Part shown: in pieces, positions 1-33,606 of the stretch
Layout of the letters: each line of letters begins with the position of its first letter
Numbering within the stretch: position 1 is the first letter of the stretch
Assembly: GCA_038207085.1 (NCBI GenBank)
Contig: JBBRAE010000012.1
Coordinates: forward strand, 1-64,000
Source: Armatimonadota bacterium
Lineage (GTDB): Bacteria > Armatimonadota > UBA5829 > DTLH01
Direction of reading: 5' to 3'
DNA: 64,000 bases
Translations under genes and position numbers: made by a program
The notes under the pieces: model-generated
The model's input: the letters and a program-made list of their open reading frames with translations, nothing else
What the model was told of the DNA's origin: nothing
Databases searched by the model: none

Positions 1-153
1 ATCGCACCGAGCCGTGCAACACTCGGATCGAGGCCACCGACCACATCATCGTAGTCGGTGTTCCCCGCAAAGAAGAAACCAGTATGGGCGTATTAATGAA
101 CTCTCAGAATACTGAGGGAGGCCTAATATGAACCGTATTGGGGCTAGCCACCA

Positions 154-273
154 GATCGTGCCATGTCTCCAGACGCGGCACGCACATTTGAGGGGTCTCC
201 TGACCCCGATCCATTCGTGCGGGGTCAGAGACCCTGAGAATGTCCGCACCGGTTCTGAAGAACCGGCGCGATC
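154..273. repeat. ~120-bp composite palindromic (REP/REPIN-like) element, copy A
   Basis: Near-identical reverse-complement copy at 33485-33606; made of GATC-footed hairpins. Confidence 0.9.
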
Positions 274-298: not shown

Positions 299-1975
299 TT
301 ATAGTCTAGTCCTGTAAAACGCCCTGAGCGCCTTTTGATACTCAACTCCTCCGGTGCTCGCTCCCTGATAATCGTAGGTCAGGTCGAACGATGACTTTTG
401 ACTTAGTCTGTAAGAAAGCCTTGCAGAGATGCCTTTGTTCGACTGTCCGAGGATCTCTGCAAGGAGCGGGTCCCATTGTTTTGACCTGTTGAAGTTGTAA
501 CGGAGCGTCAGGTTGCTCTGACTCGACGGCTCCCAGCGCAGGTCGACGGTCGGCGCTAGGTACTGCGAGATCGTCGTGCCACCTGTCACGTAGTAGTTTG
601 CGGTCGCATTAAGGCCGATGGTAGAGGACGGGGTCCAGGCGAGGTCGAAATCCGCCGACTGCGTGCTCTGTCTGCCTGCCGAAAAGCCTGTCTGATTGAT
701 GCCGTTCCACCTGTAGCCGAGACCCATCGTCATGTCCGACCGGCTCCGGTTGCGGGCCATCAGGCCGAGATATTTGCTCTTGTAGCCGCTCTCGCCGCCT
801 GCAGAGTCCGACCAGCCGGCGTCTATATTGATATCTGTGTCGATGCTAAGGGGCGTCCGAAACGACATGTAGGTGTTCTTTTGGGTCGAACCCGTTTGCC
901 CCTCGCTTGCGAAGCTTGACTGGTTCCAGCCCAGCGTCGCGAAGGTGTCGGGGGTGAGCGACGCACCAAGCGAGACTGAGCTGTTTTTGTTTTGGGATGT
1001 GTAGAGGTCGCCACGGTCGTTTGTGACCAGGTCGGTGACCGAGAGCGAGAGCCCGGGGAGTATCTCACTTCTAAGTGAAAGCGTCGTGCTGTCGGACTTG
1101 GAGCTTGAGTCGACGAGCCCGCTTGATTGGTCACTTGAAAAGTATGAACGGTCAAGACTCATTATTACCGAGCGTGTGGGAACGGCGGTCAAGCGGAAGA
1201 CCGAGGAATTGCCGCCGAATGCCGACCCAAATCTCGCCCCGGAGGTGTTGGTCTTGTCGCGGCCTATGTCGGCTGAAAAGTTCAATCCCTCAAGAAGCTT
1301 CTGCTCAAAGTTGACGGCGGCCCGGCTTCGGACGGTCTCGGAGTGGTTCGAGCTGAACGTGCCCGAGAAATCGTAGGTCTGCCGCTGCCTGTCCCACGTG
1401 AAGCGCAGCGGCGAATACTCGTAGTACGCGCCCGAGAGCAGGGTCGTGGTCTGGTAGGTGGAGTTGTTCTCCCCAGAGGTGACGCCGCTTGTCGAGCGGC
1501 GGTACTGCATGTTGAGTGTGGGCATCGCTGACTCAGCCCAGATGAAGTTTACGTTGTAGTTGCTAGTCGTGCCGTCGGAGATCGATGTGTCGCCAAAGGA
1601 TGAGATCGCCGAGCGGTGGGAGTTGCGGTCGAGTCCACCCGTGAGCGTATAGGTGCGCTGCTGGGAGGTCATATTGAATACCATATTGCTGTTTGACTGG
1701 TCAGAGAGCCGGTCTGAGTAGTCAGATGAGTTCACAGAAAGATAGCTCTGGATGTTCGACCAGGGCGCGAGCGGCCTCCTGAAGCCGAAGTTGTAGGAGG
1801 TCTGAAACGAGCTTCTGGTGTCGGCGGCTTCGCCTTCGGGCTTGACGGTAAAGCTCTGGAACTGGGTCTGAAGCTGCAGGTCGAGCGCGCGGGCGACCGG
1901 CTCCAGAGCGATCTGCAATAGCAGTGTCGCCGAAACCAGGAGAGCAGCGCGTCTCATGCGAACGTCCGGCCTCAT
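299..1975 (-). CDS. Putative large outer-membrane beta-barrel (porin-like) protein
   Basis: Start re-called at ATG 1975 (MRPDVRMRRAALL...) with GGAG upstream; signal peptide; Ser/Thr/Gly/aromatic-rich alternating strands; C-terminal RAFYRTRL resembles a beta-signal; last gene of the cytochrome operon. Confidence 0.7.
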   Translation of the reverse strand: MRPDVRMRRAALLVSATLLLQIALEPVARALDLQLQTQFQSFTVKPEGEAADTRSSFQTSYNFGFRRPLAPWSNIQSYLSVNSSDYSDRLSDQSNSNMVFNMTSQQRTYTLTGGLDRNSHRSAISSFGDTSISDGTTSNYNVNFIWAESAMPTLNMQYRRSTSGVTSGENNSTYQTTTLLSGAYYEYSPLRFTWDRQRQTYDFSGTFSSNHSETVRSRAAVNFEQKLLEGLNFSADIGRDKTNTSGARFGSAFGGNSSVFRLTAVPTRSVIMSLDRSYFSSDQSSGLVDSSSKSDSTTLSLRSEILPGLSLSVTDLVTNDRGDLYTSQNKNSSVSLGASLTPDTFATLGWNQSSFASEGQTGSTQKNTYMSFRTPLSIDTDINIDAGWSDSAGGESGYKSKYLGLMARNRSRSDMTMGLGYRWNGINQTGFSAGRQSTQSADFDLAWTPSSTIGLNATANYYVTGGTTISQYLAPTVDLRWEPSSQSNLTLRYNFNRSKQWDPLLAEILGQSNKGISARLSYRLSQKSSFDLTYDYQGASTGGVEYQKALRAFYRTRL

Positions 1976-1983
1976 AAGCGCCC

Positions 1984-3453
1984 CTACTCCGGCCCCGCCG
2001 TATAGGTCTTGCGGCTGTGGCAGGTGGGCTGGCAGCTGCCGGGCGTGTAGGAGACAATGAGGGTGCCGTTCATAAATCCCGGCACGGTGTTGGTGCCGTG
2101 GGTGCTTCCCGGCGAGATGCTCCCCGCGCCGGGGTTCACGCTTCCTCCGTGGCATTGCCTGCAGCCGATGCGTTTGTCGACGACGTGCTTGTAGTGGCTC
2201 GACGCCTCACTTCTGGTCGTCTGCGTGTCGAACCTGCTGCCGGTCTCGGCGTTACCTGGCTCGGCGGGCGCGTAGACGGAGGCCTTGTGGCACTTCAGGC
2301 AGAGTGCGTTATCGCTGGTCGAGGTCGATGCGATCAGGACGTAGGGCTTGGTCGAGCCATGCGGACCTGCGGGGTCGTTTGGGATTTCCGACGCGTGGCA
2401 GTCGCTGCAGCTCATCAGTTTGTGGCCTGAGATATCGGCCCAGGGCGACTCCATCGTCCGGACGAAGCCGTTGGCCGCGGTCGGGATCGTGTAGGAGTTG
2501 TTCTTGATCTGCGCGGTCACGGGATGGTACGACGCGTTGTTCGGATTGAACTCAACCGACTGATCGGTTTCGACTCCACCCGAAGGCGCACTTGGAGGCG
2601 ACGCGCTGAATGCCCACGAACTGTGGCACTTGAAGCAGAGCTCGTACTCGTAGCGAATGTCTGTGAGGTAGTTCCCGGCCCTGGGCGCGAATGCGGGAGG
2701 GACTCCGGGCGAACCGCCGTAGGTTGTTTCGACCCAGGAGACGCCTTTGATCGCGTCAGAGGCGGCGTTTGTCCCGGGTGTGTGGACGCCCGTTGCGCCG
2801 ATGCGGTGGACGTTGTGGCAGTCGGCGCACTCGACGTGCCGGCTGGCCGATGAATAGCTCGATGGAATCATCGCCTCGTGTGCCGAGTGCCTGCGGGCGA
2901 GCCCGGAGTTGTCGAATGCGTGGTCGTAGAGCTTGGTCACCTGTCGTTTGATGTCGTTGGTCGATGGCCCGCTTGAATCGTGGCATGCGAGGCAGAGACC
3001 CTCTTCGCGCGACACGGTGAGTGACGGGACCAGGCCGAACGAGTCCGACGCGCCGTGGGGGTCGTGGCAGTTCGCGCAGTTGCCGAAATCTGATGCGGGT
3101 CTGGCAGCGGGAGCCGAGCCCGGCCACCAGGCAAACGGCGACGTGTTGTGCACGGAGACCTCGTATACCCCCTGGCCCGCGTACGTCCCCGATGCCGAAG
3201 TGTGGCAGATGAAGCAGAGCGCGTTTTTGTTCCCGCCGTAGTTGTCGGCGAACAGGCCGAAGCTGTTGCCCGGCTGGCCGTGCTGACTATGGCACTGGGC
3301 GCAGTTGCCACGGGGCAGAGCCGAGTCCCGCAGGACGCCCGACAACGCGCTGCCGTGCGCGCTTGTGTGGTAGACCCCGCCGCAGATTGCCGACGATGTC
3401 GCAAGCGCCAGTGCCGCTATGATGAAGCTGATTGGTACTATTTTCCGTGACAC
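1984..3453 (-). CDS. Secreted multiheme c-type cytochrome (9 CXXCH + 1 CX3CH)
   Basis: GTG start at 3453 (VSRKIVPISF... signal peptide); motifs CAQCH, CFICH, CANCH, CLACH, CADCH, CFKCH, CSDCH, CLKCH, CRQCH, CQPTCH. Confidence 0.92.
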   Translation of the reverse strand: MSRKIVPISFIIAALALATSSAICGGVYHTSAHGSALSGVLRDSALPRGNCAQCHSQHGQPGNSFGLFADNYGGNKNALCFICHTSASGTYAGQGVYEVSVHNTSPFAWWPGSAPAARPASDFGNCANCHDPHGASDSFGLVPSLTVSREEGLCLACHDSSGPSTNDIKRQVTKLYDHAFDNSGLARRHSAHEAMIPSSYSSASRHVECADCHNVHRIGATGVHTPGTNAASDAIKGVSWVETTYGGSPGVPPAFAPRAGNYLTDIRYEYELCFKCHSSWAFSASPPSAPSGGVETDQSVEFNPNNASYHPVTAQIKNNSYTIPTAANGFVRTMESPWADISGHKLMSCSDCHASEIPNDPAGPHGSTKPYVLIASTSTSDNALCLKCHKASVYAPAEPGNAETGSRFDTQTTRSEASSHYKHVVDKRIGCRQCHGGSVNPGAGSISPGSTHGTNTVPGFMNGTLIVSYTPGSCQPTCHSRKTYTAGPE

Positions 3454-4439
3454 TGTTGGCACCCCGCATTTCCGTCGTTTGCGTCGGTTTTGTACGGCCA
3501 GATGAGGCCGTGGCGGTAGCTGCTGCCGTGCGCTTTGTGGCAGGACAAGCAGGATACTGTGTCGCCGGGAGATGTGAAAGTGTTCGAGCCCGTTGGGCTG
3601 CCAAACCGAAGCCTCGGGATTCCTGGGACGCCGTCGCCTATGCCTGTACCGAAGCCACTCGCGTCGGAGATCGTCCCCGTGAGCCAGTTGGAAAGCGACG
3701 TGTGGCTGCCGCTTCCGCCTATGGCGACCTCGCTGGGGTGCGCGGAGAAGTGGGCGGGCGCGGTTGATTGGGCGTCCTGTGCGAGCTGGTCGTGGCAGTC
3801 CGTGCACCATCCACGGACGTTTCCGACGGCGTAAAAGCTGACATTTTCAGTGTTGTAGGCAGCCGATGGGTTCGGATTCGCAGCGTTTACGGCGATCGCC
3901 TCGGCTACGTTTGTCCCAAGGGTGATCGGGAAGCTTCCAGCGTGGCCGGGGTTCGGGTCGCTTACGAGATTTCGGTAATTTGTCGAGCCGTGGGTGTCGT
4001 GGCAGTCGGAGCACGAGAGGCCCGCGGGCTTGCTGTAGCCACTGGAAAGCGGCGCTGTAGCCGGGCCTGCGAGGCTGTGGCCCGTGCCGCCCATCGCAAC
4101 GGTGGTGTCGCCCTGAAATACTCCCGCGCTTGAGCCGTATTTGCTTGTGTACGGCGTGGAAACAACCGAGCTTGGGGCGGCGGAGGAGCCATTTGAGACG
4201 ATATCGGGGGCGCTTGGGTCGGTCCCGTCGTGGCAGGACAGGCAGAGCGGCACTTGCTCGGATTGCTTCAGGAGAAACTCGCTTGGCTCTTGGGCCTGTC
4301 CCTGCTTGGAGGCGTGCATGACGTGGCAGTCCGAGCAAACCATCCCCGCCCCGGCGTGATGATATTCACCAGCCAACACAGGAACCGCCAGAGCCGCCAA
4401 GCCAATCAGCAAGATTTTGAACTTAACACCCAATACCAA
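3438..4439 (-). CDS. Hexaheme c-type cytochrome, OmcS-like
   Basis: Signal peptide; six CXXCH (CSDCH, CLSCH, CSDCH, CTDCH, CLSCH, CQQCH); motif contexts match my recollection of Geobacter OmcS. Confidence 0.88.
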   Translation of the reverse strand: MVLGVKFKILLIGLAALAVPVLAGEYHHAGAGMVCSDCHVMHASKQGQAQEPSEFLLKQSEQVPLCLSCHDGTDPSAPDIVSNGSSAAPSSVVSTPYTSKYGSSAGVFQGDTTVAMGGTGHSLAGPATAPLSSGYSKPAGLSCSDCHDTHGSTNYRNLVSDPNPGHAGSFPITLGTNVAEAIAVNAANPNPSAAYNTENVSFYAVGNVRGWCTDCHDQLAQDAQSTAPAHFSAHPSEVAIGGSGSHTSLSNWLTGTISDASGFGTGIGDGVPGIPRLRFGSPTGSNTFTSPGDTVSCLSCHKAHGSSYRHGLIWPYKTDANDGNAGCQQCHGK

Positions 4440-4451
4440 GCACCTGATCCT

Positions 4452-5384
4452 CTATGGTCGATCAAACTGCTGAAACGGCTTGTCCAGGTCGAACACCTGG
4501 AACCTGCGCAGTCCGCGCTCGAGCACGTAGGCCCGACCAGAGCTGTCGAGCTTGATTCGGAACGGGTAGAAGAACGACCCTTCGCCCATCCCGTAGTCGC
4601 CGAAACTGGTTAGGAAAAACCCGAGCCGGTCGAAGATTCTCACCTTGTGCGCCGCCGAATCGACCACCCAGAGCTGATCGAACCGGTCGATTGCGATACC
4701 CGCAGGCCCCACAAAGTCGCCCGCCATCTCCCCGCGCGAACCGAATCGGTAGATCAGCTTGCCGACTCGGTCGAACACCTGCACCGGAGCGCCTGTGGCG
4801 TCGGTCACATAGGTGCGGCCCTGGCGGTCGATGGCGATGTCTTCGATCGCCTGAAACTGCCCACGCGCCGACCCACGCAGGCCAAACGAGAGTCTAAGCT
4901 TGCCACCTTTGTCCAGGATAAGCACCCTTTGGCCGTCGGTGTCGGTCAGATAGAGTTCACCCGCACGATCGATGGTCATGCGACCGACTACGGTGTCCTT
5001 ACCGGCCTCGGCGCGGATGTCGATCACTCGAACGAGCTTGTTTGAGCGGTCGAGCACCTTGATCTTCTGATCTTTGGACTCTACCACGTAGAGCAGGCCA
5101 TCGCTGTCGACGGCAATTGCGGCGGGCGACTCGATGAGTTCGGGCTTGCCGATCTCAAACTTCGCTATCCCCTGCCGGTTGAAGGCATAAATAATCCCAT
5201 CGCCTGAGTCACAGACAAAGACGAGGTTGTGCGCATCGTCTACGGCCAGATCAGAGACCTTGTTGAACTTGGTCCCGCCGCGGAAGCCGTTGACGGAGTA
5301 CAAGAGGCTGATCCTGCTCGTCGCGGTGAATGCGGCGGAGCAGGCTAACATCATTATCAAGACCAGGATAACGGGTTTTCTCAT
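4452..5384 (-). CDS. NHL-repeat beta-propeller protein, secreted
   Basis: Signal peptide; repeated F..P.GIAID..G.LYV.D....RVQVFD..G motifs. Confidence 0.92.
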   Translation of the reverse strand: MRKPVILVLIMMLACSAAFTATSRISLLYSVNGFRGGTKFNKVSDLAVDDAHNLVFVCDSGDGIIYAFNRQGIAKFEIGKPELIESPAAIAVDSDGLLYVVESKDQKIKVLDRSNKLVRVIDIRAEAGKDTVVGRMTIDRAGELYLTDTDGQRVLILDKGGKLRLSFGLRGSARGQFQAIEDIAIDRQGRTYVTDATGAPVQVFDRVGKLIYRFGSRGEMAGDFVGPAGIAIDRFDQLWVVDSAAHKVRIFDRLGFFLTSFGDYGMGEGSFFYPFRIKLDSSGRAYVLERGLRRFQVFDLDKPFQQFDRP

Positions 5385-5396
5385 AATTGTTGGATA

Positions 5397-7466
5397 TTAG
5401 AACTTAAGCTCTCGGACAACCACATTCATGTCGTCCCCAGCAAAGCTGACGCAGGCGAGTTTGCCGCCGCCGATGCTCCCAAATGCGGCGGGGCCTTGAA
5501 GCACCACAAAGCTCTTGCCGCCTGTCGCCGGGACGATGGCGACTGATGCGCCGTAGACGCACGATGTGTAAATCACCCACTTGCCGTCGGGCGTGTAGCA
5601 GGGCGCGGCGGAGAGTTCTCGGAGCGAGCGACCGTACTCGGACTCGACTTGTTCGGATATGAGTTTGTCGGTCTCGCCGGTGGTAGTATCGGCGGTCCAA
5701 ATCTCCCATGACAAGCCGCTTGGGCCGGAAATACCGATCTGAAATAGAATATTGCTGCCGTCAGGCGACCATGACGGGGTGTAAACCGCGAGCATCCCGA
5801 CTTGAATCGGAGAAATATGTGTGAGCTGACGCTCGTTCTTACCGTCGGAGTCGATTGTCCAGACCTGGTCCTCGCGCACAAATGCGACGCGTTTGCCGTC
5901 GGGTGAGACTGACGGATAGAGGTCGTTCACAGGCGCGGTGGTGCGGATCGTCTGCTCGGTCGCAACGGGGCCTGCAACGCCGAGGCCGGAGTGGACGTCC
6001 TTGGGAACAGTCGGCTCGGCGGTCTTCTGGGCAGACTCGACCTGCTTTTCGCCGCCACGGGTGACCTGCCTGGTCTCAGAGGCGGCCATATCGTAGACCG
6101 AGATACCGGCCCGACCCTCGCGCCACTCAGTGAAATATATCATCTTTGAGTCAGCCGACCAACTGAGGCCGGTTTCCCCTTTGCAGGAAAGGGTGATCGT
6201 CGCAGCGCCACCCGAAGCTCTGAATACCTGAAGAGTGGAGCCGACCGCGACGCCGATCTGTTTGCCGTCGGGCGACCAGACTACGTGCTGGCTCGCCGAA
6301 GGGTCACAGTCCAAGAGTTTCTTTCGCGCGCCGCCTTTGCTGTCGGTGATGAAAAGCGCACCCATCCCCTTGTCGAGCACCGATATCACCATCCGCTTGC
6401 CGTCGGGAGAAAGCGCCGGGGCAAACTCGCTTTTCGCGCTTGTGGTAAGGCGATGGTATCTCGCAAGGTCCGGCGAAGCGGATTTTACTACACCGTAGGG
6501 GACGCTCACGTCGGCATCGCAGGTGAAGAGGTCGATCCCCTGCGCGTCTTCGAGGCTTGCCGCAAATAGGATTTTCCTGCCGTCGGGGGAAAACGCGGGG
6601 CCAAACGCCTGAATCTCGGGGGGCGTCACCCGCACAAGCTCGCGGCCATCGACTCCGGCGACCCACAGCGCGGAGTCGGTCCGGGTTTCGGAGGCAAAGA
6701 CGAAGCGTTTGCTGTCCGGGCTCCAACTGACTGGGTTTCCGTCGTAGGACTTCACGGGAACGACCAGACGCTTGCCAGTCGCCGTCTCGATGCAGACGAT
6801 GCGGTGGTCTTCCCGGTTCGCGGGCACCGCAAAAACGAGATATTTGCCGTCCGGGGAGTAGCTCGGGCTCGCGCAAAAACCCTCGTAGAGCATGGAGATC
6901 GCTTTGGTGTCGGGTTTGACGATCCAGAGGCTCGAGCCGATCGCGCGACCGATCACAACCGCAAGCTGCTTGCCGTCCGGGCTCCAGGCGTACTGCCGGA
7001 CCAAGAAGTTGGTAGTGACACCGCGGGGGTTCGAACCGTCGCTTGCAGCTACCCAAAGGTTCCGGAACGCGCCGTCTTTGCCGTTCAGCGCATAAGCGAT
7101 CTGTGAGCCGTCCGCCGACCATACAACACCCTGAGCGCCATCGGGGATGCACGCCGTGGGGGTGTCCTGAGCGTTTGGAGCACTGGGGTCAACCCGGTAG
7201 TATCTGGGTGAGCCGCTTCGAAGAGAGACAACTCCGATCCCGGCGGACCCGGGAAGCCAGTACGGCGCGCGAGCGCCAAGCGAGGAAAGCCTGCGCGCGC
7301 CTTTGCCGTCGGCTTCCATTATCCAGACGTTTGGCACGCCGAGCGGTGAACCTGCGGCGTAGGCGATCCTCTTGCCATCAGGAGACCAGACGCCGTCCCA
7401 CCCACCCGACGCAAACGCGCACGCGCAGGCAGACATGACAGCAAGGCAGAGCAGAATTCTTCTCAT
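5397..7466 (-). CDS. TolB-like PD40-repeat beta-propeller protein, exported
   Basis: Many W/F/Y-SPDG repeats; start re-called at MRRILLCLAV (7466). Confidence 0.88.
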   Translation of the reverse strand: MRRILLCLAVMSACACAFASGGWDGVWSPDGKRIAYAAGSPLGVPNVWIMEADGKGARRLSSLGARAPYWLPGSAGIGVVSLRSGSPRYYRVDPSAPNAQDTPTACIPDGAQGVVWSADGSQIAYALNGKDGAFRNLWVAASDGSNPRGVTTNFLVRQYAWSPDGKQLAVVIGRAIGSSLWIVKPDTKAISMLYEGFCASPSYSPDGKYLVFAVPANREDHRIVCIETATGKRLVVPVKSYDGNPVSWSPDSKRFVFASETRTDSALWVAGVDGRELVRVTPPEIQAFGPAFSPDGRKILFAASLEDAQGIDLFTCDADVSVPYGVVKSASPDLARYHRLTTSAKSEFAPALSPDGKRMVISVLDKGMGALFITDSKGGARKKLLDCDPSASQHVVWSPDGKQIGVAVGSTLQVFRASGGAATITLSCKGETGLSWSADSKMIYFTEWREGRAGISVYDMAASETRQVTRGGEKQVESAQKTAEPTVPKDVHSGLGVAGPVATEQTIRTTAPVNDLYPSVSPDGKRVAFVREDQVWTIDSDGKNERQLTHISPIQVGMLAVYTPSWSPDGSNILFQIGISGPSGLSWEIWTADTTTGETDKLISEQVESEYGRSLRELSAAPCYTPDGKWVIYTSCVYGASVAIVPATGGKSFVVLQGPAAFGSIGGGKLACVSFAGDDMNVVVRELKF

Positions 7467-7652
7467 ACGCGCATTCGCTCCAAACAAAGCTATTGGCTTT
7501 CGGCGCGCCATCTGATTAGCTGACCACAAACTCATCTGCCAAAAATCCCTATATGGTGAAGTATGTCACGAAGTCATTATACTACATTACTGAAGAGTTG
7601 GGGAAATGTGAAGGGGACATCTAATGAATATTGAGTCTGAAGGGCATTGATG

Positions 7653-7696: not shown

Positions 7697-8395
7697 CTAC
7701 TTGCTTGCGACGGTCTGGTTCTTCATCATCAGGGCGACGACGTCGGAACCACGTTTTGCGGTGAAATCCGCGTTTATGCTGAAGCCTTTCTTCACAAACA
7801 GGGCCTTGAATCCCACCTTCAGCTTCTGGCTGATAGAAAGGGCACCGTTCTTCATGGTCCAAGAACTCAGGGACTTGTCCACCTTGCCGTTCTTGCCAAC
7901 GCCAAAGGGCAGACCACTTACGCTGATCTTACCCTTGCCCTGGCCGGAGATCGTTCCGCCTGAGGCTGTGAGGGTTTCAGACATGTTGTGCTTCTGGTCC
8001 TTCGGCTTCTTGTCGACCATCACCTGACCGGACCCGGTGATGTTGTTGGTGGCGGTGCCGTCGGGCTTGATGGTTGTGGTCATCCCGGATATGCCGATCT
8101 TGATCGGGGCGCCGGTCTTCTGATCGAGCCGGTAGTAGTCAAACTTGGTATCAAACGTGTTGGCATCGACCTGCTTGATCACAGCGTGGAAGTACTTGTT
8201 CTCAGCCTGCTGACCGTCGGTGCTCTGCGCGCAGGTGCCGATCCACTCGCCTGTCAGACTGCGGAAGAAGCTCTGCATCGCAGTAGCAGACGGGGACGCG
8301 GGCTGGGCAAAGCTCACAGCCGCAATAGCTAATACAAGGCCGACTGCCGCAGCCATAACAATTGGGATTCTCTTTACTGTTGTGAAATGAAGCAT
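7697..8395 (-). CDS. Hypothetical secreted beta-rich protein
   Basis: 232-aa ORF, signal peptide, GGAGG RBS upstream. Confidence 0.8.
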   Translation of the reverse strand: MLHFTTVKRIPIVMAAAVGLVLAIAAVSFAQPASPSATAMQSFFRSLTGEWIGTCAQSTDGQQAENKYFHAVIKQVDANTFDTKFDYYRLDQKTGAPIKIGISGMTTTIKPDGTATNNITGSGQVMVDKKPKDQKHNMSETLTASGGTISGQGKGKISVSGLPFGVGKNGKVDKSLSSWTMKNGALSISQKLKVGFKALFVKKGFSINADFTAKRGSDVVALMMKNQTVASK

Positions 8396-8570
8396 AAATT
8401 CGCCTCCGTGTTTTGTTGCACATCAATATAGACGTGTACAACCCACCCCCTGGTTCCCGCTCGCACGCTAAAATAGTCTGTGAATGCCCAGTTCGGCATA
8501 AAATAAAACATATTTCTGCTATTTTTCATAATATTGGACCATTATACTGACCCGACTCATTGTTCTGCGA

Positions 8571-10907
8571 CTACGGACCAACAGCGCTCCACGTGTCCGG
8601 CAGGTCGTCAAGCGATAAGGGCTTTCTGGTCTGAGTCAGGCTCTTAACAAGCACAACAGTTGTTCCTTCATGGCCGGTGGAAAGGACTATCCTGTCGGAA
8701 ACCTCAAGCATGATCGAGTATCCCATGCCCATTGAGACCTTGGTTGAGTAGCCACGGCGAAGTGTGGCGCTTGGCAGGGTGATCGTCGCGATCCCTGGCC
8801 CGTGATCGGCGCAGCCGACCCAGACGGTGTCGGTCCCGACACCAGCGAACACCACGGCGCTTCCGGCGTGTTTGATCGAGTTGTTCATAGCCTCACCGAC
8901 CCCTGTTACAAACAGCACCAGATCATCGCCCTCCAAACCGTGATCCCGGCAGTATTCCTCGACCGTGCGCCGCACAGCTGCGGCCTCGGCGTGGGTCGAA
9001 ATAGTGGTCTGTATCTCGGCAAGGGAGAGGTAGTAGCGGGATTCATCGATACCGACGACCTGGAGCTTGCCATCGGTCACACTGCTGATCGTCTCGCGGT
9101 AGAACTGGCGCTTTTCCTCTTCGGCCCGCCGCAGCGCAACCTCCGCCTGTTTGCGGGCCGTGGTGTCTTCAAATAGAACGCCAACGCTGTTGTCCGGGAT
9201 GGGAAAGGCCCTGAACGAAAAATACCTGGGCTGCACTCTCACGTCCCCGTAGGCGAAGTCATCTATAACGAATGGTTCCCCGGTGCGCGCCACTTCGGCA
9301 AAACGCTGCGGAATCCCCCGCTCACGAAGCCCCGGAAACACCTCGTCTATACGTTTGCCGATTAGATTCCCCTCGCTTAGGCCAAGGGCGGTGGTGGACG
9401 CCGGATTGGCCGAGACGAGCACAAGCGACATATCGTCTTTGGGGTCCTCCAGGTGGTAGACATAAAGCCCTACCTGCATGTTTCGCACGATATCGGCGTA
9501 GGCGCGCATCGCATCTCTGGACTTTTTGCGTTCAGTGATGTCCCGCACGATCGAAAAGAGTAATTCCTTGCCGCCGTAAATGAGGCGTGTGCCGTGGACT
9601 TCCACATCAAAAAGCGCACCACCTTTGCGCACGTCAACAGACTCAGCTTCAAACCACTTGCCGGGAGAGACTGATTCAAACTCCTGAAACAGATTGTAGT
9701 GTTTTGGTTCGACTATGTCGTGCCCCGAAAGATTGACAAGCTCCTCAGCCGAATAGCCGTATACCTCTCTTGCTTTCACGTTCGCGTCCACTATGTTGCC
9801 GTCCAAGTCAAATACCAGAAATGCATCGGTGTTGGAGTCGAAAATCGCCTTATACCGCTCTTCGCTCTCGCGCAGAGCTTCCTCGGCAAGCTTTCGGTCG
9901 GTGATGTCGTAGACCGCGCCGTGGATCAGACCGGGCTGATGATCTGCAGAAGCGGTTTGCGCGACATCGAGCACCCACCGCATCTGCCCGTCTTTTCGAA
10001 ATATCCGGTACTCGTGATTGGCGCGATAGCCCGGCGTGCTCGCGAGCTTCTCCCCCTCTTCCGCGACCCGTATCACATCGTCGAGATGGACCAGTTGATG
10101 CCATTCGATAGCCCCCAAGGCGAAGTCTTCCTCGGTGTATCCGGTGATCTCTTGAAGCCTTCCCTCAAACAACACCGGACGCAAATCCGTTGGAGAAAGC
10201 TGGTAGGCGATCCCTGAGAAGTTTTGGATGAACTGGCGGTAGCGCTCTTCAGAGCGAAGAAGTGCGGCGTTCGAGCGTTCCAACTCCGACGTGCGCGCGG
10301 CAAGGGAAAGCATGGTGACTCTGAGAACGTCCTGGGCGAGGCTGAGCGTCAGTATCGCGGCCGTCGGCAGACACGCAAGAACTGTGATAAAGAGAACCCA
10401 TGAGGAAACGTAGCTGGCGTAGGACCTGGGCTCGACAATTGTAGGCACTCGAAGCAGGACGCCACTGATCACCCCCGCCGTAACTACTGCCAAGGCAACG
10501 CCGAGCAGGAGCAAACCGGCCCTGATCCCATAGAACACGGTGGCGAGGATGCAGGCAAGGAAAAACAGCACTGTCGACTGCCCGAGTAGCCCAAACTGAA
10601 ACAGTGTCGCGCAAGCCGCCACCCAAAGCGAAAGAAGTATCAACCCGGCTCGGACATCGGTCGACAGCGCCCCGCGCAGCAGGACTGCTACCCAGCCAAA
10701 CACCATTGCGGCGATATGAAACCCGAAAACCGACTGCCAACCCAGGTCTATCCCACGCGCAACGGAGGCGACAACAACCGGAGTAGACAGCGCAACCACA
10801 ACAACGAGCGCTCGGTTCACCAACCGGCTCTGCACCGCCGCCAGGGACTCCACATCCGACCAAGAACCACTCCGTCCCCCAGCACTGTCCCTGTGTTGCT
10901 CGACCAA
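8571..10907 (-). CDS. Membrane PAS-domain sensor with C-terminal HATPase_c (RsbW/anti-sigma-kinase-like) domain
   Basis: N-terminal TM helices, three PAS/PAC domains (DITDRK, DITERK, DTTARK), N-box EAMNNSIKHA, G1 DHGPGI, G2 GMG; no HisKA motif evident. Confidence 0.85.
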   Translation of the reverse strand: MVEQHRDSAGGRSGSWSDVESLAAVQSRLVNRALVVVVALSTPVVVASVARGIDLGWQSVFGFHIAAMVFGWVAVLLRGALSTDVRAGLILLSLWVAACATLFQFGLLGQSTVLFFLACILATVFYGIRAGLLLLGVALAVVTAGVISGVLLRVPTIVEPRSYASYVSSWVLFITVLACLPTAAILTLSLAQDVLRVTMLSLAARTSELERSNAALLRSEERYRQFIQNFSGIAYQLSPTDLRPVLFEGRLQEITGYTEEDFALGAIEWHQLVHLDDVIRVAEEGEKLASTPGYRANHEYRIFRKDGQMRWVLDVAQTASADHQPGLIHGAVYDITDRKLAEEALRESEERYKAIFDSNTDAFLVFDLDGNIVDANVKAREVYGYSAEELVNLSGHDIVEPKHYNLFQEFESVSPGKWFEAESVDVRKGGALFDVEVHGTRLIYGGKELLFSIVRDITERKKSRDAMRAYADIVRNMQVGLYVYHLEDPKDDMSLVLVSANPASTTALGLSEGNLIGKRIDEVFPGLRERGIPQRFAEVARTGEPFVIDDFAYGDVRVQPRYFSFRAFPIPDNSVGVLFEDTTARKQAEVALRRAEEEKRQFYRETISSVTDGKLQVVGIDESRYYLSLAEIQTTISTHAEAAAVRRTVEEYCRDHGLEGDDLVLFVTGVGEAMNNSIKHAGSAVVFAGVGTDTVWVGCADHGPGIATITLPSATLRRGYSTKVSMGMGYSIMLEVSDRIVLSTGHEGTTVVLVKSLTQTRKPLSLDDLPDTWSAVGP

Positions 10908-24995: not shown

Positions 24996-25694
24996 ATGAA
25001 TCTCGAACAGGAGCAGCGTGACCACGGGTCAGGCGTCCTTATTGTTGTCGAAGGTATCGACGGATCGGGCAAGAGCACGCAGATCCACCTGCTGCACCGG
25101 TGGCTCGTAAGTGAGGGTTACAGGGTGTTTTTCAGCGAATGGAACTCGTCTGAGCTCGTCAAAGGCACGACCAAACTCGGCAAGAAACGTAAGGCGCTTA
25201 CACCGACCACCTTCAGCCTGATACATAGCACCGACTTCGCCGACCGCACCGAGCATCAGATCATTCCGGCGCTCAAGGCCGGCGCGATCGTGCTCGCCGA
25301 CCGGTATGTGTACACCGCGTTTGCCCGCGATGTCGCACGAGGGGTCTCCCCCAAGTGGGTGCGCAACCTTTATGAGTTCAGCGTCAAACCCGACCTTGCG
25401 TTCTATTTCAGGGTGCCACTTGAAGTATCGCTCGACCGAATTCTCACAGGCCGCGCCATGCTCAAATATTACGAAGCGGGGATGGACCTCGGACTTTCCC
25501 GAGACATCAACGAGAGCTTCAAGATCTTCCAGGAACGGATCATGAACCAGTATGACTCGATGGTCGACGAGTTTGGCCTGACGGTGATCGACGGCACGCG
25601 CTCGATTGAAGAGCAGCAGGCCCAGATGCGCCGGATAGTGGCGGGTCATCTGAAAAACCATGATGACATATACGGCCCGGGAAGGAAGGAATAA
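24996..25694 (+). CDS. Thymidylate kinase-like P-loop protein 1
   Basis: VEGIDGSGKST Walker A; ADRYVYT motif. Confidence 0.9.
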   Translation: MNLEQEQRDHGSGVLIVVEGIDGSGKSTQIHLLHRWLVSEGYRVFFSEWNSSELVKGTTKLGKKRKALTPTTFSLIHSTDFADRTEHQIIPALKAGAIVLADRYVYTAFARDVARGVSPKWVRNLYEFSVKPDLAFYFRVPLEVSLDRILTGRAMLKYYEAGMDLGLSRDINESFKIFQERIMNQYDSMVDEFGLTVIDGTRSIEEQQAQMRRIVAGHLKNHDDIYGPGRKE

Positions 25695-25695
25695 G

Positions 25696-26406
25696 ATGGC
25701 GCGTTTCAAGTTTTATGGCGAAGGCATTCCAGACGTCGACCTTGAGTCGCTTTCGGGGCGACTTATTGTGCTTGAGGGGCCGGACTCGGTGGGGAGATCC
25801 ACCCAGCTTGCACTTGTGCGCGACTGGCTTGAAAGCCGGGGGCACGCGGTCTCATACACCGGGCTCAGCCGCTCGGAGCTCACCCAGCAGGGGCTCGACC
25901 AGGCAAAAAGCGGGCATACGCTCGGCAGGAAGACCATGAGCCTGTTCTACGCGACCGACTTTGCTGACAGGCTCGAAAACCAGATAATTCCCGCGCTTCG
26001 GGCAGGGTATTACGTGCTTTCGGACAGGTATTTCTACTCCGTCTGCGCGCGCGACATCGTTCGAGGCGCAGACCGGGAGTGGCTCGAAGGGGTCTACGGA
26101 ATCGCGCTTGTGCCGGATTTGACGCTTTACCTGAGAGCCGAAGCCGAAGACATAGTCCCGCGCGCGCTTTATGGCAAGGGGTTCAACTACTGGGAAGCCG
26201 GGATGGACCTTGCGCTTGGAGATAACCTGTACGACAGCTTCCTTGCGTATCAGGCGAGGGTGATCGAACAGCTCGACCGGATGGCCGAGGGCTATAACTT
26301 CGTCACCATCGACGCCTCACGCGAGCCGCAGGAGATTTTTACGGACCTGCAAAACACCATCACGCCGATCCTGCCAAAGGAACTCGGCGCAGAGTTGGAG
26401 GTATAA
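25696..26406 (+). CDS. Thymidylate kinase-like P-loop protein 2 (Walker A Lys to Arg)
   Basis: LEGPDSVGRST; SDRYFYS; clear paralog of the upstream gene. Confidence 0.9.
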   Translation: MARFKFYGEGIPDVDLESLSGRLIVLEGPDSVGRSTQLALVRDWLESRGHAVSYTGLSRSELTQQGLDQAKSGHTLGRKTMSLFYATDFADRLENQIIPALRAGYYVLSDRYFYSVCARDIVRGADREWLEGVYGIALVPDLTLYLRAEAEDIVPRALYGKGFNYWEAGMDLALGDNLYDSFLAYQARVIEQLDRMAEGYNFVTIDASREPQEIFTDLQNTITPILPKELGAELEV

Positions 26407-26409
26407 CAA

Positions 26410-27723
26410 TTGACTGATTCGCCGATTGAGATAACAGGAACGACACCGCTTGGCGTCGCTGCACAGACGACCATCTCTGGGCTCACAAAGCAGATGATGG
26501 CGAACCTGCCCGGCACGCGTAGTGGCGCCGACATAGAGGCGCTTCATGACATGCGAGTCGCATCAAGGCGGCTTCGGGCGGCGCTTCGGGGGTTTTGCGA
26601 GGCTTTTGCGCCGGAGGCGCTTAAGCCGGTGGCAGATGAGGTCGGCTCCGTAACGCGGGCGCTTGGAGAGGCGCGCGATCAGGACGTCTTTATTGAGTTT
26701 TTACAGGGCTACGCCCAGGCCAACCCAGACCAGATTATCGTCTGGCTGGTTGAGCGCGAGGAACGCATCCGCGACGGGGCGAGGCTGCGCCTGCTCGATG
26801 AGCTTGAGAGGCTCGAAGAGTCCGACATGCCGGGGATTATCTCTTCGCTTCTGTCGGGGGCGCAGTTGGTAAGCGAAGACGGCTACGCGAGCTCGTTTGC
26901 GGCCCACGCCGAGCCGCTTATCCGCCTCAGGATGTCAAAGCTAAAGTCGCTCGGCAAAGCGATACATGACCCCAAAAACGTCGCGGAGCTTCACCTGATG
27001 CGCATCGCCGCAAAGCGGCTTCGCTACAGTATGGAGCTTTTCGTCCCGGCGTTCGGCAAAGATATGAGCGACAAGATCTCCGATGTTAAGCTCCTGCAGG
27101 AGCAGCTTGGGACCGTCCACGACTGCGATGTCTGGGTCGACAAACTAAATGGCTACCGCGAAGAGCCGGGCCTTGCTCCCGAGCGCCTCGCGGCGGTAGA
27201 CGCGGTCATTGACGAGCGCACGAAGAAGCGACAGGAGACCTACGCCGAAGCGCTCGCGCACTGGTGCGGACTTGAGAAGTCGGGGTTTGATAAAGGTCTC
27301 GTGAAGCTTGTATCTACCAAGCCAGCCAAGGTAAAGAAAGCTAATCAGGCGAAAGAAACGCCTGAAAGACCGGCAGTCGAAGCGCCAAAGCAGCGCGTGC
27401 CGAAAAAGAAGGAGACAATTATTATGCCCAAGCCTCCTACCGAAGTTGAACTTGCGCGCACGGCGGTCGAACAGGCTGCGTCAACGCTTCTGGTGGCGAC
27501 ATCTGGGTTTTCCAAGCTCGCAAAGCAGGTGGAACTGCTCGACGTGACACTTGTGGGGCTCCCCGAAGGCGATGCAAAGGTCGACAAGCGGCTGGCGAAG
27601 CTTCGGCAAGTGCTCGAAAGCCTGCCGCAGGATGGCGCAATCTCGGACAAAAAGGCTGAAAAGCTTGCAGAAGAGGTTCGTGCTATCCGAAAGAAGCTCG
27701 ACGCGGACGGGAGCCAGTCCTGA
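26410..27723 (+). CDS. CHAD domain protein with Lys-rich C-terminal extension
   Basis: LHDMRVASRRLRA, RDQDV, LHLMRIAAKRLRY, LGTVHDCDV motifs. Confidence 0.92.
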   Translation: MTDSPIEITGTTPLGVAAQTTISGLTKQMMANLPGTRSGADIEALHDMRVASRRLRAALRGFCEAFAPEALKPVADEVGSVTRALGEARDQDVFIEFLQGYAQANPDQIIVWLVEREERIRDGARLRLLDELERLEESDMPGIISSLLSGAQLVSEDGYASSFAAHAEPLIRLRMSKLKSLGKAIHDPKNVAELHLMRIAAKRLRYSMELFVPAFGKDMSDKISDVKLLQEQLGTVHDCDVWVDKLNGYREEPGLAPERLAAVDAVIDERTKKRQETYAEALAHWCGLEKSGFDKGLVKLVSTKPAKVKKANQAKETPERPAVEAPKQRVPKKKETIIMPKPPTEVELARTAVEQAASTLLVATSGFSKLAKQVELLDVTLVGLPEGDAKVDKRLAKLRQVLESLPQDGAISDKKAEKLAEEVRAIRKKLDADGSQS

Positions 27724-28655
27724 TGGTCAGGATAGCTGCGGGCATTGACGTGGGCACAAACTCGGTCAAGATCGCGGTCGGGAAGATCGAGCCCGATGGG
27801 GCGATCACCATTTTGCATGACTCAAGCGTAAACGTACGCCTTGGGGCGGGGTCGGATGCGACCAAGAGACTTCAGCCCGAGGGGCAGGAGCGGGCGATCG
27901 AGGCGCTCCGGGTACAGCTCGCCACCGCACGTGAGATGGACGTCGAAGCCGTGAGGCTCGTCGGCACAAGCGCGATCCGCGACGCCGAGAACCGTGATGA
28001 GTTTGTCGCCCGGGTCAAAAGTGAGCTTGGGGTCGAACTAGAACCGATCAGCGAGCAGGACGAGGCCCGATTGGCTTACCAGTCCGTCACTCTCGATCCA
28101 AAGCTCAGACACTACGACGGAGATCAGCTCGTGGTCGATATCGGCGGGGGTTCGACTGAGATGATATTCGGCAGGGGCGGCAAGACTACGCTTCGCGAGA
28201 GCCTGAAGATCGGCGCGGTGCGGCTGACGGAGCGGTTTCTCAAGCCCGAAAAAGGCCCTATCTCTCAGCTCGACGAGGCCGCCGCGTTTGCCGAGGAGAT
28301 GATTGCTGAACTTTGCATTGGGATGAGCGTCGGCCGCGTCGTTGGGGTTGGAGGAAGCGTCGTCAACCTCGCACGGATGATGATGGAAGTGTCCGTCGAT
28401 CACACAGAAGAGGTCCACACCGTCCCGATGAGCTACCGCGACATCCGCCAGTTGATGCACATGCTCTGCGCGCTTTCCCCCGAAGAGCGAAAGAAGCTCA
28501 TCGGCCTTGAACCGGAGCGCGCGGATATCATCCTCGGCGGCACTGTGATTCTCGAGCGCCTGCTTGCGTTGCTTGGAGCTGAGAGTATCGTCGTCTCGAC
28601 GCGCGGGCTCAGGCACGCGGTGCTTTACGAATTGTTGGGTAGCCATGCCGGTTAA
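27723..28655 (+). CDS. Ppx/GppA phosphatase, catalytic domains only
   Basis: IDVGTNS, TSAIRDA, EARL, DIGGGSTE, RADII, GLR motifs. Confidence 0.92.
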   Translation: MVRIAAGIDVGTNSVKIAVGKIEPDGAITILHDSSVNVRLGAGSDATKRLQPEGQERAIEALRVQLATAREMDVEAVRLVGTSAIRDAENRDEFVARVKSELGVELEPISEQDEARLAYQSVTLDPKLRHYDGDQLVVDIGGGSTEMIFGRGGKTTLRESLKIGAVRLTERFLKPEKGPISQLDEAAAFAEEMIAELCIGMSVGRVVGVGGSVVNLARMMMEVSVDHTEEVHTVPMSYRDIRQLMHMLCALSPEERKKLIGLEPERADIILGGTVILERLLALLGAESIVVSTRGLRHAVLYELLGSHAG

Positions 28656-29232
28656 ACGAGCATCTATTGAGGCATTCGCCGCAGGTTTTGACCACGACTT
28701 CGACCACGCAAAGCAGGTCGCGAAGATTTCGGGGGAGATGTTCGACGCCTGCCGTGAGCTGCATCGCCTGGGGAAACGCGAGCGCGAGCTATTGGTCTCC
28801 GCGGCGCTTCTGCACGACATCGGCTGGGTTGGCGGGCAGAAGAAACACCACAAACGCTCACTTGAGCTTATACTTGAACACGGGATCGACGGGGCATCGA
28901 ACCGGGACCTTGGGATCATCGCAAACGTCGCCCGCTACCACAGAAAGACGCTTCCCAAGCTCTCGCACGCCGATTTCGTTCGGCTTTCCTCCACCGATCG
29001 CAAGCTCGTGCAAAAGCTCGCAGCCCTGATCCGGGTCGCCGACGGACTCGACCGCACCCACCAGAACCTGGTCTCAGTTTCGACCTGTTCGGTATCGGGA
29101 AACACTGCTATAATCGGTGTTGAAACGAGCGCCGACGCAAGCCCTGAGTTTGAGACGGCACGAGAGAAGTCGGACCTGTTTTGGGAAGTCTTTGGGCTTA
29201 AAGTCGAGTTTCTCTCAAGCAATGGCGGTTGA
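28645..29232 (+). CDS. HD-domain protein (Ppx C-terminal-like)
   Basis: HAKQV, ALLHDIG, HHKRS, VARYHRK, LIRVADGLDRTH; overlaps the upstream stop. Confidence 0.88.
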   Translation: MPVKRASIEAFAAGFDHDFDHAKQVAKISGEMFDACRELHRLGKRERELLVSAALLHDIGWVGGQKKHHKRSLELILEHGIDGASNRDLGIIANVARYHRKTLPKLSHADFVRLSSTDRKLVQKLAALIRVADGLDRTHQNLVSVSTCSVSGNTAIIGVETSADASPEFETAREKSDLFWEVFGLKVEFLSSNGG

Positions 29233-29239
29233 CGGGACA

Positions 29240-29265
29240 GGGCGAACACATTGGTCCGCCCCTAC
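29240..29265 (-). repeat. GTAG-type REP, copy 2
   Basis: Reverse complement of 11479-11504 with 1 mismatch. Confidence 0.8.
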
Positions 29266-29316
29266 GTTTGGGATGGGCACAACGTCAGTTGAAACTCAGT
29301 AGATCGGCAGGATGCT

Positions 29317-30870
29317 ATGAGAACCATCGGGGCAATGGATATCGGCACAAACTCTATTCGGATGCTCGTAGTTCGGATCGAGGAGGGCCACGATTGCAGC
29401 GTGCTCTCGACCTACAAGGAGGTCGTTCGGCTCGGTGAGGGCGAGTTTACCCACAACAAGCTCACCCGTCCCGCTATGGAGCGGGGGCTTCTGGTCGTGC
29501 GCAAGTTCGCCGACATCGCCCGACGCTGGGGGGCCGAGAAGATCATCGCCGTCGCCACTTCAGCCGTCCGGGAGGCCCAGAACCGAGGCGAGTTCGAGGA
29601 GCGTGCGCTCTCCGAGTGCGGAGTGGACGTTCGGGTCGTCTCAGGAGTTGAAGAGGCGCGGCTTATCTACCTCGGAGTGGTTTCGGGGGTCGACATCGGA
29701 AGCTCGCGGGGGATGTTCATCGACATCGGCGGCGGCACGACCGAGCTGATCATCGGCGACCACCGCGACTACCAGTTCCTCGACAGCCTGAAGCTCGGCG
29801 CGATCCGCCTCGCAAACATCTTCCTCGCGGGAGAAACCGGGCCCGTGAGCAAGAGGAAATACCGCCAGATGCTCGACTACTCCAGGGGGGTCTCGAACCT
29901 CGCCGTGCGCAAAGTCAACGAGATCGGCTTTGACCAGGCCTACGGCAGCTCCGGCACGATTATGAACCTCGCCGAAATCACCGCCAAACGCAAAGGCGCA
30001 AGCGTTTCGAGCATGCGCAACTTCAACTTGAAGTATGATGACCTCGCGGAGACGATTCAGATACTCTGTGGGCTTTCGGTTGAGGAGCGGAGGAACGTTC
30101 CAGGGATCAACCCCGAGCGCGCCGATATCATCATCAGCGGCGCGGCTGTGCTCGACTCGATCCTGACGAGCGTCGGCGCACCGAGCATCACCGTGAGCGG
30201 CCGCGCGCTTCGCGAGGGGATCGTGGTCGATTACCTATTTGAAGAAGAACACGTCCGCGAGGAGTTCTTGCAGATATCGGCGCGCGAGCGGAGCATCATG
30301 CAGCTTGCCCGCACTTGCCACTTCGAGGAGGGCCACGCCGTCCGGGTGCGCGACCTCGCCGTCTCGCTCTTCAGGCAGCTAAGAGATATGGGCCTGCACG
30401 CCTACGGTGACGTCGAAGAGGACCTGCTCAGGCACGCCTGCATAACCCACGACATCGGCTCGTTCGTATCGCACACCAACCACAACAAGCACAGCTACTA
30501 TCTTCTGAGAAACTGGGATTTGCTCGGTTTCGACGACGAAGAGATCGAGATCATCGCGACGACTGCGCTATGCCACAGAAAGCTGACCCCCAAACAGGTG
30601 CGCGGCAAGAAGCTCGACGCCTCGGCGCTCAGGCTGGTTGAAGTGCTGACAAGCGTTCTGCAGGTCGCCGATTCGCTCGACATAAGCCAGCTCGACCTCG
30701 TAAACGATGTGGCCGTGCGAGACCACCGCGACGGCCGGATAATCCTCGAAATCTTCGCCAGGGGCGCATGCGAGCTTGAGATGTGGGCGCTTGAGCGCAA
30801 GAAACGGCTCTTTGAGCAGACGTTTGGCGTGAAGCTCGACGTAAGAGTTATTGTCGCTGGCGGCGGTTAG
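29317..30870 (+). CDS. ppx: Exopolyphosphatase Ppx/GppA, full length with HD domain
   Basis: MDIGTNS, ATSAVREA, EEARL, DIGGGTTE, HDIG, HNKHSYY motifs. Confidence 0.92.
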   Translation: MRTIGAMDIGTNSIRMLVVRIEEGHDCSVLSTYKEVVRLGEGEFTHNKLTRPAMERGLLVVRKFADIARRWGAEKIIAVATSAVREAQNRGEFEERALSECGVDVRVVSGVEEARLIYLGVVSGVDIGSSRGMFIDIGGGTTELIIGDHRDYQFLDSLKLGAIRLANIFLAGETGPVSKRKYRQMLDYSRGVSNLAVRKVNEIGFDQAYGSSGTIMNLAEITAKRKGASVSSMRNFNLKYDDLAETIQILCGLSVEERRNVPGINPERADIIISGAAVLDSILTSVGAPSITVSGRALREGIVVDYLFEEEHVREEFLQISARERSIMQLARTCHFEEGHAVRVRDLAVSLFRQLRDMGLHAYGDVEEDLLRHACITHDIGSFVSHTNHNKHSYYLLRNWDLLGFDDEEIEIIATTALCHRKLTPKQVRGKKLDASALRLVEVLTSVLQVADSLDISQLDLVNDVAVRDHRDGRIILEIFARGACELEMWALERKKRLFEQTFGVKLDVRVIVAGGG

Positions 30871-33484: not shown

Positions 33485-33606
33485 GATCGCGCCGGTTCTG
33501 GAGAACCGGCGCGGATATTCCCAGGGTCTCCTGACCCCATAGCGCATGGATCGGGGTCTGGAGACCCCTCAAATGTGCGTGCCGCGTCTGGAGACACGGC
33601 ACGATC
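33485..33606. repeat. ~120-bp composite palindromic element, copy B
   Basis: Reverse complement of 154-273; lies between convergent genes. Confidence 0.9.

Follow-up and report, generated by a model that had tools for sequence, protein, structure and literature searches.

A putative osc-like export and anchoring module for OmcS-type cytochromes in an Armatimonadota bacterium

Can one small set of bacterial genes both pass a cytochrome nanowire through the outer membrane and hold its base? The question is raised by a locus at the left edge of a 64,000-nucleotide stretch of DNA (the window; positions 1-64000 of contig JBBRAE010000012.1, here C12) from an Armatimonadota bacterium, whose genome comprises 3.35 Mb in 83 contigs and is 100% complete by markers. 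The left edge is also a contig end. The locus encodes a PD40/TolB-like propeller, an NHL propeller, a hexaheme and a decaheme cytochrome and a predicted outer-membrane beta-barrel (Table 1). It was originally predicted, from the letters alone, to be a minimal system for extracellular electron transfer or nanowire assembly. The analysis presented here leads us to favour, with moderate confidence, an osc-like module that exports and anchors OmcS-type wires and sheds electrons outward.

The hexaheme cytochrome is a homolog of OmcS, both by profile and by fold. A profile of 115 hexaheme homologs retrieved OmcS (6EF8) from the PDB at E 1.7e-20, with the runner-up at 0.003. The six CxxCH motifs are collinear with those of OmcS, and the profile alignment begins at OmcS residue 1; the heme 6 region aligns weakly in sequence, yet is covered structurally (chain 2-406). 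The AF2 model, which is without hemes, has a pLDDT of 89.9. Foldseek matched it to OmcS at E 1.1e-5, the sole match under 0.001, and VIA aligned 257 residues over the whole chain with a Z of 13.6 and an rmsd of 4.1, the next structure having a Z of 5.6. All three comparisons point to OmcS, and thus support the proposed link with the omcS neighbourhood of Geobacter.

Twelve histidines are conserved in this family, each in 113-115 of the 115 homologs: H4, 16, 19, 47, 98, 124, 127, 193, 211, 278, 281 and 308. They comprise the six proximal ligands and six further residues. H19, the last residue of a CxxCHxxH motif after heme 1, is present in all 115 homologs and falls opposite H16 of OmcS in the profile alignment, which we take to be the ligand that OmcS donates; the pairing of H211 with OmcS H257 was made through a His-Pro motif and not through the printed alignment. 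In OmcS there are 12 histidine ligands, one of which, on heme 5, comes from the neighbouring subunit (PMC6584659, available text). Judging by the paired-CXXCH pattern, H19 would have no heme left to bind in its own chain.

Two further OmcS paralogs are encoded elsewhere in the genome. In a quick tree, the one on contig C8 falls in a clade of its own (52 of 87 rows, SH-aLRT 97), whose members have 14 invariant histidines and often occur as tandem copies, like omcS/omcT. The spare histidine after heme 1 is invariant across both hexaheme clades. The scores against OmcS, E 1.7e-20 for the window family and E 1.1e-12 for the C8 family, come from profiles of different depth (115 and 45 sequences) and do not rank the two. 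The third paralog (C14:42298-43161; L106:10299-11159) is solitary, with seven CxxCH motifs and no obvious signal peptide at the called start; its clade recurs across several phyla. A role for the window protein as a terminator with 13 histidines was considered and rejected: H207 and H223 are frequent in the close family (100/115 and 97/115), but not in the broader clade (5/15 and 10/15).

The gene set is also conserved together, in agreement with the original prediction. Among 401 genomes of the phylum, this one included, two to five candidates were scored per genome; related genomes in this sample are not independent. The hexaheme profile identified 13 genomes at E 1e-15. The same 13 were found with a profile of the lipoprotein described below (E 1e-8), and they are exactly the best 13 of the 26 genomes with a PD40 match at E 1e-20 (1.6e-31 or better, the next being 4.4e-25, a cut read off the ranking). 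The barrel profile matched 24 genomes at E 1e-5, of which ten, all with the hexaheme, scored 2e-140 or better and one further hexaheme genome 1e-13. The remaining 13 matches are weak (E 4.5e-11 to 7.9e-6), come from genomes that lack the hexaheme, and we took them to be unrelated barrels; in one of these, G032, no cytochrome was found near the barrel gene.

The order PD40-NHL-hexaheme-cytochrome-barrel is contiguous in five of the 12 other genomes (G007, G242, G238, G272 and G337), with a second NHL gene in G238 and a 7+1-heme cytochrome in G272 and G337. G293 and G258 are interrupted by contig ends and are otherwise consistent with this order, and in G328 the PD40 gene lies about 10 kb away. 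Three loci that repeat sampled genomes (L005-L007) were counted once. The closest named homologs of the barrel, the hexaheme and the PD40 protein are Armatimonadota proteins.

The unit is larger than five genes. In 11 of the 12 other genomes, a gene for a GNA1162/CsgG-like lipoprotein directly follows the barrel gene; in G275 the contig ends there. This is the sixth gene of the unit. In the present genome it is found on another contig (C45:18038-19177), ahead of ccmA, B, C, E and F, cysG, hemA, a ccsA-like gene, hemC and ahb genes. In a close metagenomic relative (L152), the barrel, the lipoprotein, ccmABCEF, cysG, hemA and ccsA form one run, with about 235 nt between barrel and lipoprotein. 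The label of a minimal five-gene system has to be given up: the lipoprotein gene comes next to the barrel gene, the closest relative runs on into ccmABCEF and heme genes, and a second operon, with a 14-16-heme cytochrome, a second NHL protein and further OmcS paralogs, is part of the system. The window itself indeed has no ccm genes, all PF01578 and PF03100 matches of the genome being on C45. The proposed search of the rest of the genome for maturation genes and a quinol oxidase was successful for ccm and for a candidate cytochrome b561 complex on C7, while ResB was not found in the genome. In G328 (L089:3436-4908) the cluster is linked to ResB (system II), as opposed to Ccm (system I) here and in L152.

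The end of an insertion sequence (IS)-like repeat at the start of the window indicates that the operon has been severed from what usually follows it. Contigs C12, C42, C45, C67 and C79 all close with this end, and C13, C27 and C29 with the other. A short inverted repeat, with TAG in front of it, is common to the two ends, and several copies of the element lie within palindromic REP-like repeats. The element may be IS701-like. A join of C12 and C45 across a single copy was considered and rejected: there is no exact overlap, and both contigs carry the same end, so that two separate insertions or a rearrangement would be needed. It might be argued from these ends, which lie directly after the barrel gene and before the lipoprotein gene, that an insertion has split the operon and left a decaying remnant that is no longer assembled. 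This is very improbable. None of the five frames, the lipoprotein gene or the ccm genes is interrupted or shortened, the promoter and the operator are preserved, and the barrel and lipoprotein genes stand apart in L152 as well.

A second operon (C8:25036-29685; L105:7037-11683) forms the other half of the system, of which the window locus would be the outer-membrane half. It consists of rex, a tetraheme cytochrome gene, a large cytochrome gene with 14 hemes here and 16 in relatives, an NHL gene and the C8-type OmcS paralog, and upstream of it are a Rex box and a promoter with good -35 and -10 elements. Both halves are adjacent in several relatives. On contig C7 (76453-79677 and 84517-89944), a cytochrome b561 is encoded between 11-heme and 16-heme cytochromes, a set that we presume to be CbcBA-like, together with an alternative complex III-like cluster that runs into cbb3 oxidase genes. 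The cytochrome b561 complex is a candidate quinol oxidase, and the genome has an MqnA gene for menaquinone. Two UshA-like tetraheme proteins are encoded as well (C10:19200-20699 and C3:56409-57569).

The product of 299-1975 was predicted to be a transmembrane barrel, and the AF2 model, Foldseek and strand amphipathicity agree on this. As a single sequence it has no match in the PDB, and at E 0.01 neither Pfam nor NCBIfam offers a matching family. The AF2 model, built from a 43-sequence alignment, is all-beta (pLDDT 93.6, pTM 0.73), with 29 strand elements, or 28 if two short adjacent ones are counted as one. The strands are amphipathic, with a face difference of 1.74 compared with 1.12, and a maximum of 1.6, in 1000 shuffles. 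The protein thus models as a plug-less outer-membrane barrel of roughly 28 strands; for 28 strands, the standard formula gives a diameter of about 50 A, measured between C-alpha positions. The genome encodes Omp85/BamA, which implies that an outer membrane is present. Barrels of OmcS-like clusters in other phyla match the barrel profile at E 3e-17, 5e-15 and 3e-11 over 506-517 columns, compared with 4e-4, 0.18 and 5e-5 for the reversed controls, and homology with them is probable, not certain. In the ESM Atlas, the matches were confined to barrels without a name and to generic PD40 clusters, and they stayed below the recognition threshold.

The decaheme cytochrome has nine CxxCH motifs and a CxxxCH motif whose cysteine and histidine are kept in every one of 18 aligned homologs, for which reason ten hemes are counted, as had been estimated. 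H34, which follows heme 1, is also invariant (18/18). It is the same spare histidine as in the hexaheme, and the decaheme could therefore join the same chain. Searched singly against the PDB, the decaheme matched nothing, and with a profile it had no close relative (best E 1.3e-6).

In nine of the ten genomes with a free-standing barrel, the decaheme gene abuts the barrel gene, and in three further genomes the two are fused. One open reading frame of about 1730 aa in G136, G275 and G181 (L099:4800-9974, L100:14521-19731, and L101:13861-15906 plus L138:1-3108) joins a ten-heme domain, three Big_1 Ig domains of the invasin type and a C-terminal barrel; it directly follows the PD40 gene, and in G181 it is interrupted by a contig end. 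This is a cytochrome-passenger, barrel-anchored architecture. Such proximity also suits a fixed, MtrCAB-like conduit, in which the decaheme would fill the barrel, one or a few hexahemes would sit on its outer side as terminal reductase, and the role of the propellers would be confined to assembly, with no long filament. MtrB (6R2Q_B) is the top Foldseek match of the barrel (E 3.4e-10, TM 0.51, 8% identity), with VIA fitting it to half of the model at an rmsd of 3.2. Furthermore, polymerisation is not known for most OmcS paralogs: of the four in G. sulfurreducens, a wire is known to be formed by only one, and homology does not predict polymerisation (PMC12977616, available text).

We regard this conduit as unlikely, though far from negligible. 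In G204, PD40, NHL, barrel, lipoprotein, hemA and ccsA follow one another without a cytochrome in between (L135:8181-16555) and no decaheme homolog was found in the genome. Retention of barrel, propellers and lipoprotein fits an export machine better than a pore plugged by a decaheme, and G204 may be a natural deletion that defines the export core. The invariant spare histidine of both hexaheme clades and the frequent tandem duplication of C8-type paralogs also count against the conduit. The decaheme scores 35 bits against the DmsE model TIGR03508, whose cut-off is 192, and both proteins remain below the MtrA/DmsE and MtrB family cut-offs.

The PD40 protein had been singled out as an unusual partner, and it is one: constant in the carriers, it is near-absent beside related clusters of other phyla. 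A profile of its orthologs gave one weak match (E 9e-5) in 48 other loci (L008-L055), which come from other phyla or are unclassified, have flanks of up to 10 kb, many of them shorter, and include four weak decaheme matches. In the protein collection there are nine full-length relatives at E 3.5e-80 or better, followed by a drop to 2e-47; the three named ones among the nine are from Armatimonadota. The possibility that this is a housekeeping TolB was rejected, as it scores 171 bits against the TolB model (cut-off 343), lacks a TolB_N match and adjacent tol/pal genes, and its inheritance tracks the cytochrome cluster. A DPP/S9 peptidase was also rejected, there being no conserved GxSxG and no conserved His, Cys or Met. 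The NHL propeller, whose orthologs precede the hexaheme or the barrel gene in relatives, is a putative folding or assembly chaperone. Cysteines in the signal peptides of the PD40 and NHL proteins are not conserved among orthologs, so neither is probably a lipoprotein.

The operon is probably repressed by Rex. Upstream of the PD40 gene there is a Rex-like box with three mismatches to the consensus TTGTGAA-N4-TTCACAA (PMC2883068, available text), preceded by a TATAAT hexamer without a good -35 that a strict sigma-70 scan did not list. The box alone is at chance level, with three matches in the window against a shuffle mean of 1.44. What supports it is a position that is conserved among relatives: in G293 and L152, too, a TATAAT followed after 4 nt by the box lies ahead of the PD40 gene. 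Boxes with at most three mismatches occur at five of seven leader positions and none of seven internal positions, and at 42 of 1508 leader genes of the present genome. The rex gene on C8 carries a box with two mismatches, and rex homologs were found in all five carriers searched.

The putative control by Rex is relevant to the direction of electron flow. Porin-cytochrome conduits can run in both directions, and the system might take up electrons from Fe(II), minerals or partner cells, as MtoAB/PioAB-like systems do, and feed the alternative complex III-cbb3 or NrfAH chain, there being genes for an alternative complex III-like enzyme, cbb3 and NrfAH. MtoAB-like genes have been reported in one Armatimonadota metagenome-assembled genome (PMC9671151, available text). 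Uptake is improbable nonetheless: the Rex-like operators and the linked rex speak for induction by a surplus of NADH, and so for electron disposal, and the window carries genes for sugar use, such as a GH2 beta-galactosidase.

The predicted arrangement of five co-oriented genes with short gaps or overlaps was confirmed on the minus strand. With the starts of Table 1, successive genes are separated by 12 nt and 12 nt, overlap by 16-25 nt (the decaheme gene starting at 3462 or 3453) and are separated by 8 nt; a barrel start at 1957 would widen the last gap to 26 nt. The PD40 frame is open up to 7535, with alternative starts at 7511 and 7535. By inspection, the N-termini of all five products resemble Sec signal peptides. 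The GC content at third codon positions is 0.73-0.81, near the genome average (0.71, sd 0.05). Farther upstream, in the same orientation (7697-10907), the window encodes a secreted protein of 232 aa that resembles no family clearly and a sensor of the MASE11-PAS-HATPase type, with no obvious link to the cluster. A probable polyphosphate-handling cluster lies at 24996-30870, where two genes judged by eye to be thymidylate-kinase-like stand in a row with a CHAD-domain gene and two of the Ppx/GppA type.

Table 1. Features of the locus, in window coordinates.
Feature	Position	Strand	Remarks
PD40/TolB-like multi-blade beta-propeller	5397-7466	-	About 690 aa; secreted; no peptidase domain; Pfam PD40 E 2.8e-49
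NHL-repeat beta-propeller	4452-5384	-	310 aa; secreted; Pfam NHL E 2.2e-17
OmcS-family hexaheme c-type cytochrome	3438-4439	-	333 aa; 6 CxxCH; Paired_CXXCH_1
Decaheme c-type cytochrome, paired-CXXCH chain type	1984-3462	-	9 CxxCH and 1 C-terminal CxxxCH; Paired_CXXCH_1
Outer-membrane beta-barrel (predicted)	299-1975	-	558 aa; plug-less; roughly 28 strands
-10 hexamer TATAAT	7576-7581	-	4 nt before the Rex-like box; seen in the sequence
Rex-like operator (candidate)	7554-7571		3 mismatches to consensus
End of IS-like repeat	1-149		At contig end; BLASTN
Dispersed palindromic (REP-like) repeat	154-273		Just downstream of barrel gene; BLASTN matches on many contigs, also at window 33485-33606

Given the computed identity and fold of the parts, their co-inheritance and the capacity for maturation, we infer polymerisation, binding, direction and expression in the following way. 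A build-up of NADH would cause Rex to release the window operon and the C8 operon. The proteins would leave through Sec and receive heme from Ccm, and the NHL propellers may keep the OmcS-like subunits ready for export. The barrel and the CsgG-like lipoprotein, with PD40 as a periplasmic scaffold or gate, would pass subunits out or hold the base of the wire. By analogy with OmcS, these cytochromes may form filaments: because H19 would have no heme of its own chain to bind, subunits could join head to tail, with H19 ligating heme 5 of the neighbour. The bulk subunit would be one of the window, C8 or C14 hexaheme paralogs, and the decaheme, with the same spare histidine, would most likely sit in or on the barrel as the base of the chain. 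Electrons would pass from menaquinol to the C7 inner-membrane cytochrome b/multiheme complex, the C8 14-16-heme periplasmic cytochrome and the wire, and finally to Fe(III), humics or another cell.

Several observations weigh against this export and anchoring module. As a single sequence, the hexaheme did not find OmcS in the PDB, only NrfA at E of about 0.3, and the Foldseek TM of its model to OmcS is just 0.44. The best fold match of the barrel is a fixed conduit protein, TonB-dependent barrels rank about equal to or above MtrB in VIA, and the reversed barrel alignment still matches the original at E 1e-8, which makes the profile matches to other barrels weak evidence of ancestry. PD40 is shortened internally to about 220 aa in L152, and thus its full length is not always needed. 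A second lipoprotein was not found in the genome with a six-sequence profile, nor was a homolog of the 26-heme cytochrome, no frame in the genome having more than 16 CxxCH motifs. The cbb3 oxidase and NrfAH are other electron sinks. As for regulation, the count of Rex boxes is partly post hoc, one leader having been picked after the matches were seen; the box in G204 overlaps the start codon; and the box contains the CRP-type core TGTGA-N6-TCACA, so that a CRP/FNR-type factor is possible.

How does the cluster compare with known systems? The omcS/osc cluster of G. sulfurreducens (GSU2505-GSU2493) is similar in its OmcS-fold hexaheme with paralogs, NHL propellers, large barrel with lipoprotein, and a 14-16-heme cytochrome in the companion operon, and also in the folding and porin-type secretion proposed for it; its OscJ (GSU2494) is presumably a 16-heme cytochrome, to which the C8 gene might correspond. 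The barrel and the lipoprotein are related to those of OmcS-like clusters in other phyla, and may be counterparts of the Osc secretion factors. The present cluster differs in PD40, the extra decaheme, the split into two operons, the link to Ccm and Rex-like control, and only one lipoprotein is present, whereas clusters of other phyla show two. The 26-heme cytochrome OscI (GSU2495) has no counterpart, and the comparison with the Osc proteins was made through published descriptions; for these reasons the cluster is classed as osc-like, and not as a strict osc member. The osc operon encodes factors for folding (OscH), secretion (OscE, F and G) and morphology (OscD), according to the available text of PMC13194489. 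In other phyla, OmcS-like clusters often have a giant cytochrome downstream of the barrel, with 41-42 CxxCH in about 1050-1160 aa (L009, L012, L013, L018, L021-L026, L031, L032, L035, L040, L041, L043, L045 and L048).

The minimal OmcE nanowire cluster of Desulfuromonadia has a near-identical parts list: two multiheme cytochromes, two beta-propellers, the subunit and a large barrel (PMC13712944, available text). Its subunit is tetraheme (VIA Z only 4.5 against the window hexaheme), and its propellers are lipoproteins, unlike, probably, those described here. MtrAB, MtoAB and PioAB (PDB 6R2Q) share a decaheme paired-CXXCH gene beside a 26-28-strand barrel; the decaheme here is about 470 aa, the barrel is only 8% identical to MtrB, and Mtr systems are without propellers or OmcS. 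TolB of Tol-Pal is likewise secreted and has PD40 repeats, whereas the PD40 protein consists of a propeller only, at half the TolB cut-off and without tol/pal neighbours.

This is not a new class of system, as OmcS/osc-like clusters have been published as widespread. The new features are the PD40 partner, the single lipoprotein and the decaheme-Ig-barrel fusion in three relatives. In the literature on multiheme cytochromes, porins and OmcS in Armatimonadota, no description of the cluster was found, and the supplements of Shen et al. 2025 may already list the phylum. Multiheme cytochromes of iron-related or unknown function are mentioned in the available text of PMC11788075 and PMC9671151; the accessible part of a preprint on extracellular electron transfer in peat (10.64898/2026.05.27.727921) does not mention the cluster, nor do those of PMC12307469 and PMC12954529 mention osc.

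It is tempting to speculate further, in a form that we hold doubtful, that Armatimonadota have an ATP-independent platform of their own. Barrel, CsgG-like lipoprotein, PD40 and NHL would build a histidine-linked, heteropolymeric wire in a fixed order: a decaheme base held by the barrel, the window hexaheme with its 12 histidines as an adaptor, and the C8-type hexaheme with 14 as the repeat. The decaheme-Ig-barrel fusion would then serve as an initiator or anchor with a covalent tether.

How cytochrome nanowires are secreted, initiated and anchored is stated to be open (PMC13712944, available text). The small, co-inherited parts list, the loss of cytochromes in G204 and the fusion in G136, G275 and G181 indicate an export core and suggest an anchor. 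With this cluster, sugar-using Armatimonadota become candidates for extracellular electron transfer, and Rex hints at when to look for it. If the interpretation is true, the fusion would be the anchor or initiator whose identity the nanowire literature lists as unknown.

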